A DNA stretch of 51,836 nucleotides from the NCBI GenBank assembly GCA_018608435.1, contig JABAZV010000007.1, forward strand, positions 13,946 through 65,781, given 5' to 3'. Source of the stretch: Patescibacteria group bacterium (GTDB lineage: Bacteria > Patescibacteriota > Minisyncoccia > Phycocordibacterales > UBA918). Numbering within the stretch: position 1 is the stretch's first letter; each line of letters starts with the position of its first letter. The position numbers and the translations under genes were made by a program. Below are positions 14,027 through 37,713 of the stretch, piece after piece. Below the pieces are notes generated by a model. That model saw only the letters and a program-made list of their open reading frames with translations. It was not told where the DNA came from and searched no databases.

Positions 14027-14107
14027 AAACAGTAACTTTAAACGAGCAGGAGCCGTTTATTTTCTTTGGAAACATCGATCAATCAGCCGCAACTCACGAA
14101 AGAACAC

Positions 14108-14136
14108 TGGACTTTTTGCCTCAAATGCGTTATATT
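14108..14136 (+). promoter_or_regulatory. Internal promoter for rpmI-rplT
   Basis: TGGACT-17-TATATT followed by a leader of about 130 nt with hairpins. Confidence 0.5.
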
Positions 14137-14268
14137 TTGCCCACTTTGTCGCGATTCCCAAGCGTCTGAAGCCCGATCAAATACTTAAAACCAAACAAGT
14201 CTAAACTTAGACTTTTTACTGGTAAAATGCACTTCTTTGCAATTTTACAGCTACACTGAATTATTCTT

Positions 14269-14460
14269 ATGAAAACTAACAAATCATTCACTAAGCGGAT
14301 CAAAGTTTCCAAAAACGGAAAACTGATCGCTCGAAAGCCCGGACAAAACCACTTCAACGCAAGACAAAGTGGTCGAGCGCGCTTAGCACGCAAACGAACG
14401 CAGTTGCTCACAATGAGCAAACGAATTACCCGCCGCTTCCTCCCTAAGAGTGGAGCATAA
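14269..14460 (+). CDS. rpmI: 50S ribosomal protein L35
   Basis: MKTNKSFTKRIKVSKNGK...HFN; synteny. Confidence 0.95.
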   Translation: MKTNKSFTKRIKVSKNGKLIARKPGQNHFNARQSGRARLARKRTQLLTMSKRITRRFLPKSGA

Positions 14461-14477
14461 TCACCTAATATAGAAAT

Positions 14478-14825
14478 ATGGCACGTGTAAAAGGAGGTCT
14501 GATGTCGCAAAAGCGACGCCGCAATATTCTTGACGAAGTGAAAGGTTATCGTTTCGCCCGCTCAAAGAAAAAGGCTGCTGCCCGTGAAGCTATTTATCAC
14601 GCACAGCTACATGCATTTGATCATCGCAAAGACAAGAAAGGAGACTTTCGTCGCTTGTGGACAGTTCGCATTAATGCAGCACTCAAGCCACACAGCATCA
14701 AATACAGCCACTTCATTAATATGCTGAATGTTAAAAACATCGAGCTAGATCGCAAAATTCTTGCAACACTCGCTGTCGAAAACCCCGAAGCTTTCAATCG
14801 AGTGGTTGCTGAAGCGAGTAAGTAG
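14478..14825 (+). CDS. rplT: 50S ribosomal protein L20
   Basis: MARVKGG...RKDKKGDFRRLWTVRINAA...LDRKILA. Confidence 0.98.
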   Translation: MARVKGGLMSQKRRRNILDEVKGYRFARSKKKAAAREAIYHAQLHAFDHRKDKKGDFRRLWTVRINAALKPHSIKYSHFINMLNVKNIELDRKILATLAVENPEAFNRVVAEASK

Positions 14826-14835
14826 CTTACTCAAC

Positions 14836-14873
14836 ATAAAAATACCAGTGCTCTAGAGCACTGGTATTTTTAT
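14836..14873. terminator. Bidirectional terminator (perfect 38-bp palindrome)
   Basis: ataaaaataccagtgctctagagcactggtatttttat. Confidence 0.85.
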
Positions 14874-27900: not shown

Positions 27901-28296
27901 TTACCAAATGATGAAAAGTTGCTCACCTCCTACATTCTTCTCCTTAGCTTCCTCACCTGTGAGAATGCCTGCTGGAGTAGATAGGATCATGTGCCCCTTT
28001 CCAAACTTAACCGGATGAATATCCGCCACTCCCGAATAAAGACGTCGACCTGGTTTTGAAACACGCTTTACACCAATGATTCGGTGCTTGCCTTGTTCAT
28101 AACTTAGTGTCACTTCGAGAGTTTTTTCTTGTACTGCTTTTCCTTTTGTTACTGCTGATTCAACATAACCAGCCTCAACCAACTTGCTTATAACTGAATG
28201 ACGGAGTTTTGAATACGGTACAGAAACCGTTTCTTTTCCAACCATACCAGCGTTTTTAAGACGAATTATGAGATCGCCAATAGTGTCGCCTACCAT
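27901..28296 (-). CDS. rpsH: 30S ribosomal protein S8
   Basis: [34 protein letters not shown]. Confidence 0.97.
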
Positions 28297-28475
28297 GATG
28301 ATTTTCTTATGCCTGGTATTTGTCCTTCGTGTGCGAGTTCGCGGAAGCAAATTCGACACATGTCGAAGTCACGCATGTAACCGTGTGGACGTCCACACAG
28401 TGTGCAGCGTCGCACGACCCTTGATTTGAACTTCGGCGGTCGCTGCGCCTTTATGATCATTGCTTTTCTTGCCAT
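28290..28475 (-). CDS. rpsN: 30S ribosomal protein S14 (Zn-binding type); possible UUG start at 28520
   Basis: [31 protein letters not shown]. Confidence 0.97.
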
Positions 28476-28850
28476 AAATGAAGAAATGAGCGTAGCGATT
28501 ATTCTGAATTTACGTCTCAATTTCAGGCTTTCGGCACAAATATATATCAGTTTTTATAGTCGAGTAAATCTCTTCCTAAAAACCAAGCAACCTGCCTGAA
28601 ATTGCTAGACGCCGTACACAGCATGTACCGCTACAACTTTATGATTATTTTTTTGGAGCCGTCTCACCAAGATATCGGTGACTGCACTCCCTGATAATTC
28701 TGGCTTGTGTTCGTCAGTTTAAAGTAAATAAACTGGCAATTTTGGGCACGAACTGTATTACAATTAGCAATCTGCTCGCACCTCACTCGCCTTCAACGAT
28801 TGGCTCGCTTATGAACAAAATACGTTCAAAAACAAAGCCGCTCGCTTCGC
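28476..28850 (-). promoter_or_regulatory. Structured 5' leader (about 375 nt) of the rpsN-secY unit, with motif shared with the rpsS leader
   Basis: Several hairpins; stem GCGUCU(AG)CAAUUUCAGGC/GCCUGAAAUUGAGACGU at 28505-28612; promoter TTGCTA-16-TATGGT at 28883-28856. Confidence 0.75.
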
Positions 28851-28979: not shown

Positions 28980-29864
28980 TTAGAAAGGGATTTTTCTTAG
29001 TGATTTATCCATCAGCTCAATTTTTGTAGTTTTATACTCGAAAGTTGCTGTTTTGTTTTGTTGACAGACTGTGTTGGCACGTAGATAGTCTTTTGTTTCA
29101 GTAGAAGATAGTTTGTATGAGTATTCATGATTAATAAAGACTTCTTTAAAAACAAAAAGCTCAAAACTACTACTCAAAAAGAAGTTGAGACAATGGTCAT
29201 TAGGTATTCCGGTATACGTCAAAATCACATCTTCTCCATCTGTCCGCATAGAAATTTCACCGTTATATCCATTTAGAATTCTTCCTTCTTGCACGTCTAC
29301 ATCGTAGTATTTTTTTGCTATTCCTGATTCAATCAAATCTTCCGTAGTAAAATCCTTCATAACACCTTCCTCAGCAGCAATGCTAATTTTTTCAATCAAA
29401 TATCTTCTTTTCTCAGTTTCATCGTCCTCTTTTTGTGTATCTGCTGTATTCACTCCTGCTATTACAATAATTGCAACGATTGTTCCCCATAATACATATT
29501 CAATAATATTGTCAAAAGGTTTAATGAGAGCCGTCAGCACTAATCCGATGACAATTCCAATTGAAACAGTTTTTGCTATCATCGGAATAAGTATTGATGC
29601 AAAGAGGGGCGCCCAACCGCCCATCAAAAATATGATAACGGCTGCTCCTACGAGTAAGATCATAAACGATATGACAATGTAAGCCGTTTTTCTAAGTAGT
29701 ACCATTGTGATCGTGGTGAGAATAACTAGCCCAACATGACTAATATGATACGAATCATCTACCGACGAGATAGAAAAAATAAGTAACCCAACATAACTAA
29801 AACCTAGAACAACAGAAACTACAAATGGCAATAATTTTTTGTCACTTTTATATATATCAAACAT
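28980..29864 (-). CDS. Multi-TM membrane protein with C-terminal type IVb pilin (PilS)-like domain
   Basis: About 5 TM helices, then LIESG..ILNGYNGEISM..VILTYTGIPNDHCLNF..VFIN..ANTVC..TFEY; AT-rich. Confidence 0.55.
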   Translation of the reverse strand: MFDIYKSDKKLLPFVVSVVLGFSYVGLLIFSISSVDDSYHISHVGLVILTTITMVLLRKTAYIVISFMILLVGAAVIIFLMGGWAPLFASILIPMIAKTVSIGIVIGLVLTALIKPFDNIIEYVLWGTIVAIIVIAGVNTADTQKEDDETEKRRYLIEKISIAAEEGVMKDFTTEDLIESGIAKKYYDVDVQEGRILNGYNGEISMRTDGEDVILTYTGIPNDHCLNFFLSSSFELFVFKEVFINHEYSYKLSSTETKDYLRANTVCQQNKTATFEYKTTKIELMDKSLRKIPF

Positions 29865-33498: not shown

Positions 33499-33825
33499 CT
33501 ACACTGACTTCGCAGCCTTGGCTGCTGAAATTTCTGCCTCCTTTTTCTTCTGATCGAGATCCTTCTGCATCTTACCGCCGTGACGCCAGAACTTTTTAGT
33601 TGGTGAAAACTCACCAAGTTTGTGTCCCACCATTTCTTCGGCAACTCTTACTTCAATGTGATCGCGACCGTTATGTACACCAAATGCAAATCCAACCATT
33701 TCTGGTGAAATAACTGAGCCTCGCGCCCATGTCTTTATGGTGTCCATATCCTCCGGCTTTTTCCCGGCGATCTTTTTGAGTAGACCTTCGTCTACGTATG
33801 GTCCTTTATATAGTGATCGTGACAT
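33499..33825 (-). CDS. rpsS: 30S ribosomal protein S19 (C-terminal extension); possible UUG start at 33870
   Basis: [30 protein letters not shown]. Confidence 0.98.
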
Positions 33826-34155
33826 GAATGAAACAAGGAGTGTAACGACTATGTTGAATTTACGTCTCAATTTTGGGCTTTTTCCTGCCCAAAATTGCTA
33901 GACGCTGATGTAACACAATAGCCACAGCCCTAAATTATTTTGAATAAAAGAGATTTTGCGTTTATACAAAGCCGTACAAACACGAGCGCGTCCAAGACGC
34001 GCTTAGTGACAACCTCTAGGAAATACAGGGTAACGGCCCAGCCTTCCAAGAGGTTCTCACGATTTTGATTGTCCATCATCCCCACCACTGCCAAGCAGTA
34101 GAGTTAATCACACAAACAAAACCAGATAGAGCTTTGTTTGCTTATTGATTAGAAC
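33826..34155 (-). promoter_or_regulatory. Structured 5' leader (about 330 nt) of the rpsS-rplE unit, with motif shared with the rpsN leader
   Basis: Stem GCGUCU(AG)CAAUUUUGGGC/GCCCAAAAUUGAGACGU at 33855-33905; promoter TTGACT-17-TATTCT at 34190-34162. Confidence 0.75.
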
Positions 34156-34324
34156 GAGGTAAGAATACAGAAATTGGATGACAAAGTCAATGGCAAAAAT
34201 GGTTCAGACTTTCCTATTGAAATTTGACTAAATACTCACAGAAAACATAACTTATGGGGTATTATACTATTGAGTAATTATTTATACGTGAACAATACCA
34301 CCCTAGTGCTTTATAATATATTTT

Positions 34325-35026
34325 ATGGATAGAAAAATTGTAGTCTATGTTGTAATTTTGTTTTTAATCTCTTTGTTGATTGTAATCTTTTGGCTCAGAG
34401 GAAATACTCCTGCTCTTTCACCTAACGAGGAGAAAGATGCGACACCAAACAGTGCGCTGTCTAATGATGTTCATGATAATAATCAGATTATGGATAAACC
34501 TGCTGAAACACCATCTGACTGGTCAGTCGTTGATTCAGCTGGATTGTCGGGGGTAACATTTGCCTATCCAAATTTCGGACTGGAAAATGAATACCGAGTA
34601 GATGTCATAAATGAAAATTATCGAATTGTTAGAACAATAACTGAATTGGTACATTATCCTAAACAATCAGTTGAACAGACAAGTGTCGGAATAAGAGACA
34701 ACATATCAAACCTGACTTTTGACGAATGGTTAGCCGAAAGGGTTCCTAATGCTCAAAAACTGATCGCCGACAACATCCTCGAGCCAGTTTCCACCGAAAA
34801 CGGGATCTCTGGGTATATTCTGGGGAACAAACCTCTACCAAGCTACGCACTAGAAACCGAACCCATAACATCAGTTGTCTTTTTGACTGATGAGCAGAAT
34901 ACCGTCTTTATTTCCATTGGACCCAGTCACGAAAATCAGTGGTCTATCTTTACAGGTCGAGAACCTACAGCGCGCACAAATCTTATGATGTCTATGGTAA
35001 ATACCATATCAGTGAATTCAAACTAA
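34325..35026 (+). CDS. Membrane-anchored hypothetical protein (possibly PsbP/Mog1-like fold)
   Basis: N-terminal TM helix, linker, W...GVTFAYP motif. Confidence 0.65.
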   Translation: MDRKIVVYVVILFLISLLIVIFWLRGNTPALSPNEEKDATPNSALSNDVHDNNQIMDKPAETPSDWSVVDSAGLSGVTFAYPNFGLENEYRVDVINENYRIVRTITELVHYPKQSVEQTSVGIRDNISNLTFDEWLAERVPNAQKLIADNILEPVSTENGISGYILGNKPLPSYALETEPITSVVFLTDEQNTVFISIGPSHENQWSIFTGREPTARTNLMMSMVNTISVNSN

Positions 35027-35074
35027 ATGCCTGACTGTTGCCAATAACATCTTGTTTTATCTCCCCAAAGATGT

Positions 35075-35335
35075 TTGGATATGGTTATGTTACAAAACGC
35101 ACCAGACTCAAATATTGAAGAGAATATTAAAACTGAGAATAATCCAGTACCAGCGCCACAAAAAACAAAGCGGCGTTGGCGACTAAAACTCTTTCTTATA
35201 ACTTCGCTTATTATGCTGGGCGCGGGGATTTATATTGGTATGGAGTGGAAACAATATCGTCACATCAGCGATTGTTTAGAACTAGGCGGTAGCTTGCAAG
35301 CTGAAACGAGTGACGTTTGTATTGTTAATCGCTAA
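35075..35335 (+). CDS. Small single-TM hypothetical protein
   Basis: TM helix followed by CLELGG...C; true start is probably an internal ATG. Confidence 0.6.
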   Translation: MDMVMLQNAPDSNIEENIKTENNPVPAPQKTKRRWRLKLFLITSLIMLGAGIYIGMEWKQYRHISDCLELGGSLQAETSDVCIVNR

Positions 35336-35341
35336 GCCTTT

Positions 35342-35659
35342 ATGCCAAAAAACCGCGGACGAGAACACACAACTTTGACTGAAACCGCTGCTATCGTGGC
35401 GCATGAATTAAAAGGAATCGCTGGAATAAAAATGATCGCGCCGGGTGAAATTCGCTCCAATAAACGTAGCGCGAGCGTCCGTTTTATTACTTGTGTTTAT
35501 ACAAACGCTGGTTTTGAGCTTATTGTTAGCGGTCAAAGTGCTCAGAAGATCGCAGTACACACCGACTCTGATCCGCGAAGAATCTTTGCCACTTTAAAGA
35601 GCAGCAAGAAATTGCGAGAGTTCATATTTAAAGAACGCGAACGAATACCGGGAGAGTGA
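35342..35659 (+). CDS. DUF2103-like protein
   Basis: GREHTT, IKMIAPGEI, GFELIVSGQSAQKIAVHT resemble DUF2103. Confidence 0.6.
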   Translation: MPKNRGREHTTLTETAAIVAHELKGIAGIKMIAPGEIRSNKRSASVRFITCVYTNAGFELIVSGQSAQKIAVHTDSDPRRIFATLKSSKKLREFIFKERERIPGE

Positions 35660-35665
35660 GATAGC

Positions 35666-35708
35666 TTAATTAAAAAGGCGGGCGCTAAGCGCCCGCCTTT
35701 TTAATTAA
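35666..35708. terminator. Bidirectional terminator
   Basis: ttaattaaaaaggcgggcgc-taa-gcgcccgcctttttaattaa. Confidence 0.88.
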
Positions 35709-35750
35709 ACTTTTTCTGTTTGTGACCAAGTATTAGGTAAGATTATATTG

Positions 35751-36041
35751 CTACGCTTCTTCACTAGCAAACAAATCCAGAAAAGCCCGCGGTGAAACTG
35801 CTATTCCATATCCACTGAGTGCATCCGCCGAAAGCTTAGCTGCAGCTTTTACCTTTTCGTCATTCTCAGAATCGCCAGTAAATCCTAGCGGAGAAACAGC
35901 TGAAACTTTGTTCTCGAACTGATTAAGTTCTGCCGCGACTATCTCATTTGAAGCTGCCAAGCCCAGCAGTTCGTCACTGGTCTGAATAAACTCTCCTACA
36001 AAATCTCTTTGTCCACCAAACAGTCTCTTAAGCCACTGCAT
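35751..36041 (-). CDS. Hypothetical protein
   Basis: 96-aa ORF 15 nt downstream of 36057..37556. Confidence 0.65.
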   Translation of the reverse strand: MQWLKRLFGGQRDFVGEFIQTSDELLGLAASNEIVAAELNQFENKVSAVSPLGFTGDSENDEKVKAAAKLSADALSGYGIAVSPRAFLDLFASEEA

Positions 36042-36056
36042 AATTACAATGAATTA

Positions 36057-37556
36057 CTACAGCTCGTCCAATGCTTCATCGATCAAGTCTTCAACCTCTT
36101 CTACCAGATCTAATACATCATCGTAGTCATTGTCATCGAGTGCTTCTTCAGCCTCGTCTAGTTCGTCTTCAGCTTCGTTAAGCAGGTTTTCCGCATCTCG
36201 TGTGCTCTTACCATCATCTTCTGCTTCGTACACCTCATCCCATGCATCTTCAAGTTCATCTTTAGCATCTTCATAAGCGTCTTCGGCTTCTTCTTTTTCT
36301 TCCTCATCTTCATCATCGTCGTCGTCCTTAGAACTATCGAGCTCGTCGTACGCATCGTCGATCAAATCTTCTGCTTCCTCAGCGTATTCCATAGCTTCTT
36401 CAAACTCTTCTTCATCAATGGCAATATCTGCTTTCTTCAAACGGCGCTCGGCTTTACTAAGCAAATCCTCAGCTTCTTCAACGTCATCACCGTCGTCTTT
36501 AGCTTCATCCACTTCGTCTTCAGCGTCAGACAGGTCATCCCATATATCTGCTACAAATTTTTCAGCGTCATCGTCTGATACAAGGTCAATTTCATCTTGT
36601 GCTTCTTCTAGCAACTCTTCTGCATCAAGCGCATCGCTTTTGGCTTGACGATAAATTCGATCTTCAAATGAATCGCGCGCGTCGCTTAGCAAATCTTCCG
36701 CTTCGTCGATAAGATCTTCTGCGTCACCAGTGTCAGCGTCGCGATCTTCTGCTTCTTCAAATAATTCAAGTACATCTTCGTACAAATCTTCAATGTCTTC
36801 GAGCTCATCTTCTGTTTCACTTTCTTCAGACTCGCCGCCAGCGTCTTCAAACGAATCGGTGGCGTCGTCTAGTGTTTCGATTGCGAGTGTTTCCGCCTCT
36901 TTAAAGTCTCCGTCGAGGTAGCTTTCGATGATAGAGAAAAGATCTTCCAGAGTGTCGCGCATGTCTTCTTCAATCTCAGCTACTTCTTCAGGATCATCTT
37001 CGCGCATGTCTTCAAGCAATTCGTATGTGTCGAGAATTACCTTCATCGCGTCACCAACTGTCCGTTCGACGTCTTTTTGTGCTTCGCTTTTTGCAACACT
37101 TGAAACACCAGCCACTAAAGGAGCAGGCTGAACTGGAGCTACAGCAACAACCGCTACTTCCTCAGCCTCCTCAACAACGGTGTCAGCCTTCATGGTTTCA
37201 AGCTTCTCCACCAAATCAAGCAAATATGCCGCTCGTGACTTTGGTCCAAAATTACCAGTCGCCGGAAGAACTTCTTTTGCGACTTGCCACTTTATCACAG
37301 CCGCCTTGGTTAGCGAGCCATATTTGTTAGTTTCATTCCCCGCAGAACCGGGTCCTTCGGTTGCTACAGTGAAGCCAGATTCATTTAAATAAACCTGCAA
37401 ACAGCGCACTGTCTCGTCGACCACATTTAGCTCCAAAGTCTCACCGAAACCGCACTCATTGGACTGCGCTCCTGCTGTATAAGGCAGTAATAAAATGGCT
37501 AAAAATAAGGCTATTATCGAAGCGATGATAAAGTTTGGCCGAGAAATTGTGTTCAT
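36057..37556 (-). CDS. Exported peptidoglycan-binding-domain protein with highly acidic helical repeats
   Basis: Signal peptide; VRCLQVYLN..YGSLTKAAVIKWQ..TGNFGPKSRA (PG_binding_1-like); D/E/A-rich repeats. Confidence 0.8.
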   Translation of the reverse strand: MNTISRPNFIIASIIALFLAILLLPYTAGAQSNECGFGETLELNVVDETVRCLQVYLNESGFTVATEGPGSAGNETNKYGSLTKAAVIKWQVAKEVLPATGNFGPKSRAAYLLDLVEKLETMKADTVVEEAEEVAVVAVAPVQPAPLVAGVSSVAKSEAQKDVERTVGDAMKVILDTYELLEDMREDDPEEVAEIEEDMRDTLEDLFSIIESYLDGDFKEAETLAIETLDDATDSFEDAGGESEESETEDELEDIEDLYEDVLELFEEAEDRDADTGDAEDLIDEAEDLLSDARDSFEDRIYRQAKSDALDAEELLEEAQDEIDLVSDDDAEKFVADIWDDLSDAEDEVDEAKDDGDDVEEAEDLLSKAERRLKKADIAIDEEEFEEAMEYAEEAEDLIDDAYDELDSSKDDDDDEDEEEKEEAEDAYEDAKDELEDAWDEVYEAEDDGKSTRDAENLLNEAEDELDEAEEALDDNDYDDVLDLVEEVEDLIDEALDEL

Positions 37557-37664
37557 AAATAAGCGATTAACCGTGTTAAGTAATTGGGCTTATTGTAACA
37601 CTATGTGCCAATTGATTGCAGTACTCATTTTGCATAAAACTGGACAGTAGAAAAACTGGCAACA

Positions 37665-37704
37665 AAACATAAAAAAACTGACCAAAGTCAGTTTTTTTAT
37701 GTTT
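37665..37704 (-). terminator. Terminator after rplB
   Basis: aaacataaaaaaactgac-caaa-gtcagtttttttatgttt. Confidence 0.85.
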
Positions 37705-37713
37705 CTTCTTAGC

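Follow-up and report, generated by a model that had tools for sequence, protein, structure and literature searches.

A dispersed two-hairpin repeat lies against the start codons of S14 and S19 in a Patescibacteria genome

Several kinds of short element are known from the spaces between bacterial genes and from the leaders of ribosomal protein genes. The repetitive extragenic palindromes of proteobacteria (REP, with the related BIME and REPIN) are short intergenic hairpin repeats that occur in many copies, in both orientations and in clusters, are co-transcribed, and are mobilized by the RAYT Y1 transposase. The Correia elements of Neisseria and other bacterial miniature inverted-repeat transposable elements (MITEs) are ~100-nt repeats beside genes, also co-transcribed, whose long RNA stems are able to change expression downstream. 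The autoregulatory leaders of ribosomal proteins (the S10 leader with L4, the S8 site of the spc operon) are each specific to one operon, and bL27 of Firmicutes carries an N-terminal extension that is cleaved by Prp. According to their published description, Ssn-related motifs (NTS/SRM) are dispersed single hairpins of 20 to 50 nt that flank the gene for the SsnA GIY-YIG single-stranded DNA nuclease (PMC11893778). Here we compare with these systems the leaders of two ribosomal protein genes, rpsN (S14) and rpsS (S19), in a 51,836-nt stretch of DNA (the window) from a Patescibacteria group bacterium of the UBA918 lineage (GenBank assembly GCA_018608435.1, contig JABAZV010000007.1, positions 13,946 to 65,781 of the forward strand), whose genome of 0.95 Mb (949 kb) is 97.9% complete. 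The initial annotation had proposed that the 45 nt before each AUG form a conserved, UUG-initiated extension of 15 codons, with RNA-level structural constraint as its second reading. The extension is refuted and structural constraint is the right reading: both leaders are the 3′ parts of copies of a two-hairpin repeat that is found in most genomes of the genus. Judged from the sequence comparisons below, the 45 nt are almost certainly noncoding and would add nothing to either protein.

The S14 and S19 leaders as two copies of one repeat

Both genes lie on the minus strand. rpsN encodes a zinc-type S14 of 61 aa from the ATG at 28475 (28290..28475; Pfam PF00253, E 2.5e-25), rpsS encodes an S19 of 108 aa from the ATG at 33825 (33499..33825; Pfam PF00203, E 1e-30), and each ATG directly adjoins its 45-nt leader (28520-28476 and 33870-33826). 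As first described, the two leaders match without gaps at 36/45 positions, each opens with TTG (at 28520 and at 33870) in frame with the ribosomal protein ATG, and an in-frame reading of each yields 15 residues before the ribosomal protein. Folds of both leaders also confirm that the TTG is located within the 3′ strand of a long stem at both loci, and the likeness continues upstream into that stem. The shared 19-mer AAATTGAGACGTAAATTCA has only two sites in the window (0.04 expected from 100 shuffles) and is confined to the same two leaders in the entire genome; the likeness of the two leaders is not chance.

The S19 leader ends a 79-nt copy of the repeat (33826..33904, minus strand) that runs up to the ATG, folds at −25.6 kcal/mol (z −4.29; 0/200 shuffles as good), and scores 93 bits (E 2.7e-17) against R1, a covariance model of the two-hairpin repeat. 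Its first hairpin, P1 (33863..33904, minus strand), reads CGUCU-AG-CAAUUUUGGGC, loop AGGAAAAA, GCCCAAAAUUG-AGACG; the stem has 16 pairs and one two-base bulge and is the source of nearly all of the −25.6 kcal/mol. The second hairpin, P2 (33826..33861, minus strand), reads AAAU-UC-AACA-U-AG..GU-UAC-AC..CU-UGUU-UC-AUUC, with an apical core, ATAGTCGTTACACTCCTT, that fits the phylum-wide core pattern described below. The supposed 15 codons consist of the last 8 nt of the P1 3′ strand, one joining U, and all of P2, and the UUG (33870-33868) lies inside P1. The S14 copy (28476..28611, minus strand; R1 69-75 bits) likewise runs up to its ATG; an insert in the P1 loop extends it to 136 nt. Its P1 (28513..28611, minus strand), with the stem CAAUUUCAGGC/GCCUGAAAUUG, differs from that of the S19 copy by two compensated pairs, CA/UG versus UG/CA, and again contains the UUG (28520-28518). 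In its P2 (28476..28511, minus strand) the consensus pairing is the minimum-energy fold, though a weak one; folded alone, P2 is marginal in the S14 and S19 copies (−1.8 and −0.6 kcal/mol), and P1 is strong. The insert, 62 nt in the P1 apical loop (28529..28590, minus strand), is unique in the genome, where BLAST finds only itself; in a metagenome contig of run X4 three other letters replace 28531-28590, a weak indication from one contig of low likeness.

The differences between the two leaders do not have the character of coding substitutions that had been ascribed to them. All nine are spread 3/3/3 over codon positions in the proposed frame, and the Nei-Gojobori ratio of nonsynonymous to synonymous differences (pN/pS) is 1.16 in that frame and 0.77 and 0.39 in the remaining two, giving no signal of purifying selection on a 15-residue peptide. 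When nine changes are placed at random, moreover, 50% of 20,000 trials leave the frame open and include two or more synonymous changes. Every one of the nine falls at a paired position of P2: six make up three compensatory pairs between the S14 and S19 copies (offsets 16/37, 17/36, and 25/29), offsets 21/33 hold an A.A mismatch in one copy and G-C in the other, and offset 44 is part of an A-U pair in one copy and of an A.C in the other. The apparent conservative amino acid replacement is base-pair compensation.

Before S19, relatives keep neither the frame nor the length of the proposed extension. In the S19-linked copies of nine relatives, TTC or TCG replaces the UUG in 8/9, codon 6 is a stop (TGA or TAA) in 7/9, and the length is 46 or 47, not a multiple of 3, in 7/9. 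Start, open frame, and frame coincide in none of the nine, leaving the window's own copy as the only one of 10 in which they do; all three fail in the relative whose S19 is the most similar among those searched (89% identity). Over 78 copies of the repeat the UUG triplet is TTG in 41, TTC in 18, TCG in 13, and something else in 6, and changes in its letters are matched by compensating changes in the 5′ arm of P1. In 55 distinct model-aligned copies the second letter is paired as A-U in 44 and as G-C in 8, whereas for the third letter the counts are 41 C-G and 10 G-C. The UUG belongs to a stem and mutates jointly with its pairing partner. Although the proposed frame is stop-free in 67/78 family copies, this follows from the conserved sequence of the repeat itself. 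Of the 30 copies that abut a start codon, 11 are in frame and 19 are out of frame, as by chance; neither distance nor frame to the AUG is conserved. The proteins themselves align from residue 1 or 2 (S14, 39/40 relatives) and from residue 1 (S19, relatives' proteins). In annotation, S14 and S19 begin at the AUG and the upstream open frame is not to be called, and the same trap is set wherever the repeat ends in frame with a gene, as it does in those 11 of 30 abutting copies.

Size, structure, and placement of the repeat family

At a loose threshold, 92/121 genomes of the genus contain stretches similar to the 85 nt before S19, and R1 matches 108/128 genomes at E ≤ 0.001. The genus matches number 150 listed and 933 more, or ~1,080 copies, from a scan in which at most 33 candidates were scored per genome. 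The window's genome has two strong copies plus, at most, five weak matches; the highest load is 34 in one complete 1.2-Mb genome, and arrays of partial copies occur. Most copies are ~76-81 nt long. Across 31 copies the consensus of P1 is CGUCY-AG-CAAUUU-variable stem, loop yAGGAAAg, AAAUUG-RGACG, and that of P2 is AAAU-UC-NNNA-U-AG..GY-UAC-RC..CU-UNNN-UC-AUUY. In a 31-copy MAFFT alignment 88.2% of cells are paired versus 74.3% in shuffles (0/500 reach the observed value) and 24-47% in slid-partner controls, and 18/26 pairs have changed on both sides. Model-fitted alignments, which lean towards the structure, give 96% of cells paired for 55 distinct copies of the genus, with double changes in 18/24 pairs overall and in 9/12 pairs of P1 alone. 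Outside the stems, the AG bulge, the GG in the loop, and UAAAUUC, AUA, UC..UU, and UCAUU are invariant unpaired letters. The element exists as a family whose stems are maintained through compensatory change.

Within the genus the stems contain 6 G.U versus 1218 Watson-Crick pairs, along with 25 A.C, 19 of which are in the two end pairs; a phylum-wide strand test counted 37 G.U versus 26 A.C. The hairpins could form in RNA, in single-stranded DNA, or on both strands, since these counts give no clear strand bias that would separate RNA-level from DNA-level folding. Two candidate pseudoknots (P1 loop AGGA with P2 UCCU, and junction GUA with loop UAC) were rejected, as their partners do not covary when the alignment is inspected by eye. 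Rfam 15 has no match in the window at gathering score, and at E ≤ 1 the six loci with copies that were searched gave only a below-threshold match to the DnaX frameshift element, unrelated and elsewhere in one locus; no self-cleaving ribozyme family of Rfam matches the repeat in the window or in these loci. With no Rfam family and no published description found in the literature searched on Patescibacteria and the candidate phyla radiation, the two-hairpin repeat family is apparently new to description.

The tip of P2 reaches further than the whole element. In 149 genomes from other families of the order R1 has only weak matches, in 11 genomes, and these retain the P2 tip AUAGUCGCUUCGCUCCUU between unrelated complementary arms. 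A degenerate 18-mer of the P2 core, ATAGTCGYTWCRCTCCTT, finds at least 121 loci in the genome collection, and the element is also matched strongly and over its full length in records titled with Patescibacteria lineages. Among the matches listed, 54/80 titles name a Patescibacteria lineage (Saccharibacteria, Paceibacterota, Nomura-, Kaiser-, and Taylorbacteria, and others), at least four consecutive pairs flank the core at 76/121 loci (~2% by chance, by our own estimate), and the distance from the core to the next ATG clusters at 11 nt (19 loci) and 10 nt (6 loci). In 43 model-aligned matches from these records, an alignment that also leans towards the structure, 95% of cells are paired and 21/24 pairs show double changes. 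Some copies of the core adjoin tRNA 3′ ends in antisense. Carriage on viral contigs was considered and set aside: 10 core matches, one of them with at least four flanking pairs, are near our rough chance estimate.

The core scan also touched records with other titles. The 18-nt core stands without flanking stems beside ...GGGAGATAAAGGCCGA in records titled Bacteroidaceae (L191, L210, L235, L264, and L273), and it forms part of hairpins in records whose titles name Poriferihabitaceae and Gammaproteobacteria (L189, L252, L293, and L304). These occurrences may be other elements or chance.

Where the copies sit in genomes of the genus is uneven. A sense ATG or GTG begins ≤12 nt downstream of 30/83 distinct copies, with spacers of 0 nt (4 copies), 1 (12), 2 (4), 3 (2), 6 (3), 7 (2), 8 (1), and 9 (2); three of these 30 starts are doubtful GTG frames overlapping an antisense gene. 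A further 11/83 have a sense gene at 13-150 nt and in 12/83 an antisense gene has its 3′ end ≤60 nt away; several of these 12 overlap the gene by 6 nt, with the TGA of the gene as the complementary strand of the UCA of the element. The other 30/83 have neither a sense start nor an antisense 3′ end near. The genes behind copies include those for translation components (S19, S14, S6, elongation factor P [EF-P], and alanyl-tRNA synthetase [AlaRS]) and for RecR, PilB-type ATPases, MacB/FtsX, an ABC ATPase, an extracytoplasmic function (ECF) sigma factor, glucose-6-phosphate dehydrogenase (G6PD), and small unknowns; in one genome (G102) 114 nt separate a copy from the 16S rRNA gene that follows it on the same strand. 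Arrays are best seen in genome G065 (L166:6260-7100 and 14050-14840), where gaps in a surface-protein/ABC-transporter cluster each contain three or four complete copies together with recombined partial ones, with 148-nt tandem duplications that carry the end of the upstream gene. Occupancy is patchy, since R1 matches 0/29 S14 loci and 5/29 S19 loci (4 strong, 1 weak) of relatives.

Older leaders, gene order, and translation initiation

Both genes have a second, gene-specific leader upstream of the repeat. Before S19, 33985..34060 (minus strand) holds a hairpin with GGCCGUUACC, of the form GAGAACCUCU...GGGCCGUUACC...AGAGGUUGUC, followed by a terminator-like hairpin at 34003-33985; it looks, from its sequence, like an attenuator-type ribosomal protein leader, and a GGCCGTTACC hairpin was found before S19 in at least 7/29 relatives' loci. 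Before S14, the hairpin GGAGUGCAGUCACC...GGUGAGACGGCUCC occupies 28655..28690 (minus strand), with its flank extending to 28704, and, judged by eye, at least 12/30 relatives' loci have similar hairpins with covarying stems ~20 nt upstream of S14. Neither the S19 nor the S14 leader hairpin has an Rfam match. Because these older leaders lie upstream of the repeat here and, in relatives, directly before S14 or shortly before S19, the repeat appears to be an addition between leader and AUG; the filled and empty sites of relatives are too distant from one another to give its exact borders. Relatives' metagenome contigs align to S14 up to 28475 and not beyond (X3 record 17, X4 record 26), and the single contig of X4 record 26 jumps after 28475 into L5; at this low likeness both observations are weak. 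No fixed −35/−10 was found upstream of P1 in 34 copies, and scans for a promoter inside the repeat gave only weak sites; the S19 promoter is likely ~250 nt upstream, ahead of the older leader.

The minus-strand ribosomal protein cluster is broken twice, between L2 and S19 and between L5 and S14. L2 (37714-38574) is followed by 3.9 kb with four other open reading frames (ORFs; 33905-37713) before S19; one of the four carries peptidoglycan-binding and DUF4398 domains, and in relatives, too, L2 lies >600 nt from S19 or outside the locus. Between L5 (30096-30653) and S14 stands a 294-aa ORF (28980-29864, minus strand) with a weak PilS/pilin-type match. A Pfam scan of the window found no L30 gene between S5 and L15; this and the genome size of 0.95 Mb are in keeping with a bacterium of the Patescibacteria (candidate phyla radiation).

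The AUG that P2 abuts belongs to an organism without Shine-Dalgarno (SD) sites. In the window's genome SD-like 4-mers precede 35/528 starts of long ORFs versus 39/528 in a control interval, G is depleted upstream of starts, and T at −12, A at −11, and T at −7 are enriched before the 528 long ORFs, a leaderless-promoter signature. One such arrangement is seen in the window at 34289-34327 (plus strand), where TGAACA-17-TATAAT ends 7 nt before the ATG of a divergent gene at 34325. The 16S rRNA of three relatives ends in GGAUUAAUUCCAAU, without CCUCC; in L188 (1500-1530, minus strand) the end reads GGAUUAAUUCCAAUUGGACACG, without the canonical CCUCC anti-SD, and L186 and L187 are alike in this. 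The absence of an anti-SD tail is thus a statement about these three relatives and not about the 16S rRNA of the window's genome, which the assembly lacks. A "neo-SD" role was considered, since the 3′ arm of P1, AAAUUGGGA, can pair with the relatives' 16S tail UUCCAAUU. It was rejected because this arm differs among the copies of one genome (UUG, UCG, UUC) and the changes are compensated inside P1 and not by the rRNA; the idea is further weakened by the palindrome CCAAUUGG in the 16S tail and by the same depletion of G.

Explanations and comparison with known systems

As the probable explanation we favor a dispersed hairpin repeat akin to REP and MITEs, either still mobile or once so, that docks on gene boundaries and is not a dedicated regulator of S14 and S19. 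The 3′ end of the repeat would dock on gene boundaries, above all start codons; after docking, the repeat would be carried in the 5′ untranslated regions of S19 and S14, where the weak P2 helix would pair the bases just before the AUG. Several results weigh against this explanation. No mobilizing enzyme was found among the two kinds checked, Y1 transposases and small GIY-YIG proteins. Y1 transposases (PF01797) are absent by this search from the window's genome (G000) and from G018, G053, and G114, all carriers of copies; within the genus they occur in 80/128 genomes, with as many as 17 matches in a single genome and including at least 11/20 motif-free genomes, and no copy of the motif lies within 1.5 kb of the five best Y1 loci. 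Small GIY-YIG genes, present in 115/128 genomes with up to seven per genome, do not track the motif (98 genomes have both, 10 the motif only, 17 the gene only, and 3 neither), and no strong copy lies within 1.5 kb of five such loci (four genes and one fragment), although one 31-bit R1 match is 1.3 kb from a small GIY-YIG gene in G065. There is no target-site duplication (the best 3-mer offset accounts for 8/81 copies), and no terminal inverted repeats were found, the ends being unlike (CGTCC... and ...CATTT). The nearest relative of a copy is in another genome in 76/81 cases, often before other genes, and there is consequently no sign of recent within-genome bursts, in an analysis whose resolution is low because ~35 of the 50 compared bases hardly vary. 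Lastly, the stems are kept at the S19 site in 10 species with different stem sequences, apparently at one orthologous site, and this, with the phylum-wide core and the fixed 10- to 11-nt spacing to the ATG, speaks for a functional element and not for one that is purely selfish.

Two observations on the enzymes stand apart from these tests. The Y1 genes of the genus, which are of IS200/IS605 type, include a second class with 220-260 aa open frames and weaker scores. At 34 nt past the end of the window, on the minus strand (G000:C18:65815-66051), lies an ORF for a small GIY-YIG protein of one domain, with an open frame of 116 aa (E 2.4e-16).

The coding alternative can now be put in its narrowest form: in this species only, UUG would initiate when P1 melts, giving S14 and S19 a 15-residue, basic-hydrophobic N terminus that is perhaps later removed, as in the Prp-cleaved propeptide originally suggested. 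Both window copies have the TTG, the open frame, and the right frame, and so do 3/4 S14-linked copies of the genus (2/3 of the relatives), a count that also tells against our preferred explanation; the stop-free frame of most family copies is inherent in the conserved sequence. Set against this are the 3/3/3 spread and pN/pS of 1.16, the failure of start, open frame, or frame in 9/9 relatives' S19-linked copies, a UUG buried in the 16-pair P1 stem with letters that covary with their partners, relatives' S14 and S19 that align from the first or second residue, and the presence of like sequence before a 16S rRNA gene and antisense after stop codons. Nor does the window's genome have a match to the Prp family, PF04327, in a search whose control matched 3/14 genomes, Bacillus subtilis among them. 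We regard initiation at the UUG as very improbable. A dedicated cis-regulatory RNA, in which a ligand or protein would bind the P2 tip and gate the AUG-proximal helix of a translation-rich regulon (S19, S14, and S6 operons, EF-P, AlaRS, and rRNA), has more in its favor: strong covariation, invariant unpaired letters, a P2 core kept across Patescibacteria at a fixed 10-11 nt from the ATG, a P2 that is marginally stable alone, as expected of a helix needing a partner, tandem copies, and the many downstream genes of the translation apparatus. Yet the repeat is not tied to one operon, with at least 11 other kinds of gene downstream, and the genes downstream of copies do not form the coherent set that a riboswitch would control, since others among them are unrelated (pilus ATPase, RecR, ABC transporters, sigma factor, G6PD). 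This account also has to accommodate the 12/83 copies antisense against stop codons and 30/83 without a nearby gene, the patchy occupancy of the same gene between species, the load of up to 34 copies in a 1.2-Mb genome with its arrays of partial copies, stems nearly free of G.U in the genus and without strand bias in the phylum, and the lack of an Rfam match, and we consider it unlikely.

The same P2 tip could instead mark a site of RNA maturation, where a nuclease would read the tip and cut at the foot of the helix, leaving an mRNA that starts at or a few bases from the AUG and would suit a ribosome that dispenses with SD pairing and mostly translates leaderless mRNAs. The sharp 3′ edge of the repeat (0-3 nt from the AUG in 22/30 abutting copies), the fixed distance from core to ATG across the phylum, the genome's lack of SD sites together with its T-12/A-11/T-7 leaderless-promoter signal and the relatives' 16S rRNA without an anti-SD, and the copy in an rRNA leader, where processing is normal, all fit such a cut; the antisense and gene-less copies are left unexplained by it, and no known self-cleaving ribozyme family in Rfam matches. 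On balance we give maturation a low probability. Hardly less doubtful, in our estimate, is a broader proposal in which the P2 hairpin (tip AUAGUCGYUWCRCUCCUU, start codon 10-11 nt behind) would be a phylum-wide part of gene expression, its tip read by a factor that cuts, or loads the ribosome, at the helix foot. If that were true, P2 would replace the SD system lost by the lineage, and the other copies would represent spread and decay of the module. In the genomes themselves, a repeat of strict structure, with about a thousand copies in the genus and a Patescibacteria-wide tip, is set against the start codons of essential genes: either tiny genomes tolerate start-codon hairpins on ribosomal protein operons, or the hairpin serves translation start or mRNA trimming.

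Compared with the systems outlined at the start, the repeat resembles the bL27 extension in forming a short stretch before the mature N terminus of a ribosomal protein, and differs from it in having no conserved frame, no coding-type substitution, and no Prp family match. Like ribosomal protein leaders it is a structured RNA ahead of a ribosomal protein operon; unlike them it precedes many kinds of gene, and the window holds separate, older, gene-specific leaders upstream of it. It shares with Ssn-related motifs the dispersal of hairpins that cluster around certain genes, and the genome does contain a GIY-YIG gene of the ~85-145 aa size class; however, the published motifs flank the nuclease gene (PMC11893778), and the repeat neither flanks nor co-occurs with the small GIY-YIG gene. 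Small, gene-adjacent, and stem-forming, it is similar to Correia elements and MITEs, although it lacks the terminal inverted repeats and target-site duplication of MITEs. Its likeness to REP and REPIN lies in being short, hairpin-forming, and dispersed between genes in many copies, in both orientations and in clusters, with stems that, as in REP, are strictly Watson-Crick. Unlike REP and REPIN, it has no link to Y1 transposase genes, and it is set apart from REP by its two dissimilar hairpins, its asymmetric conserved tip, and a 3′ end that lies 0-12 nt before start codons.

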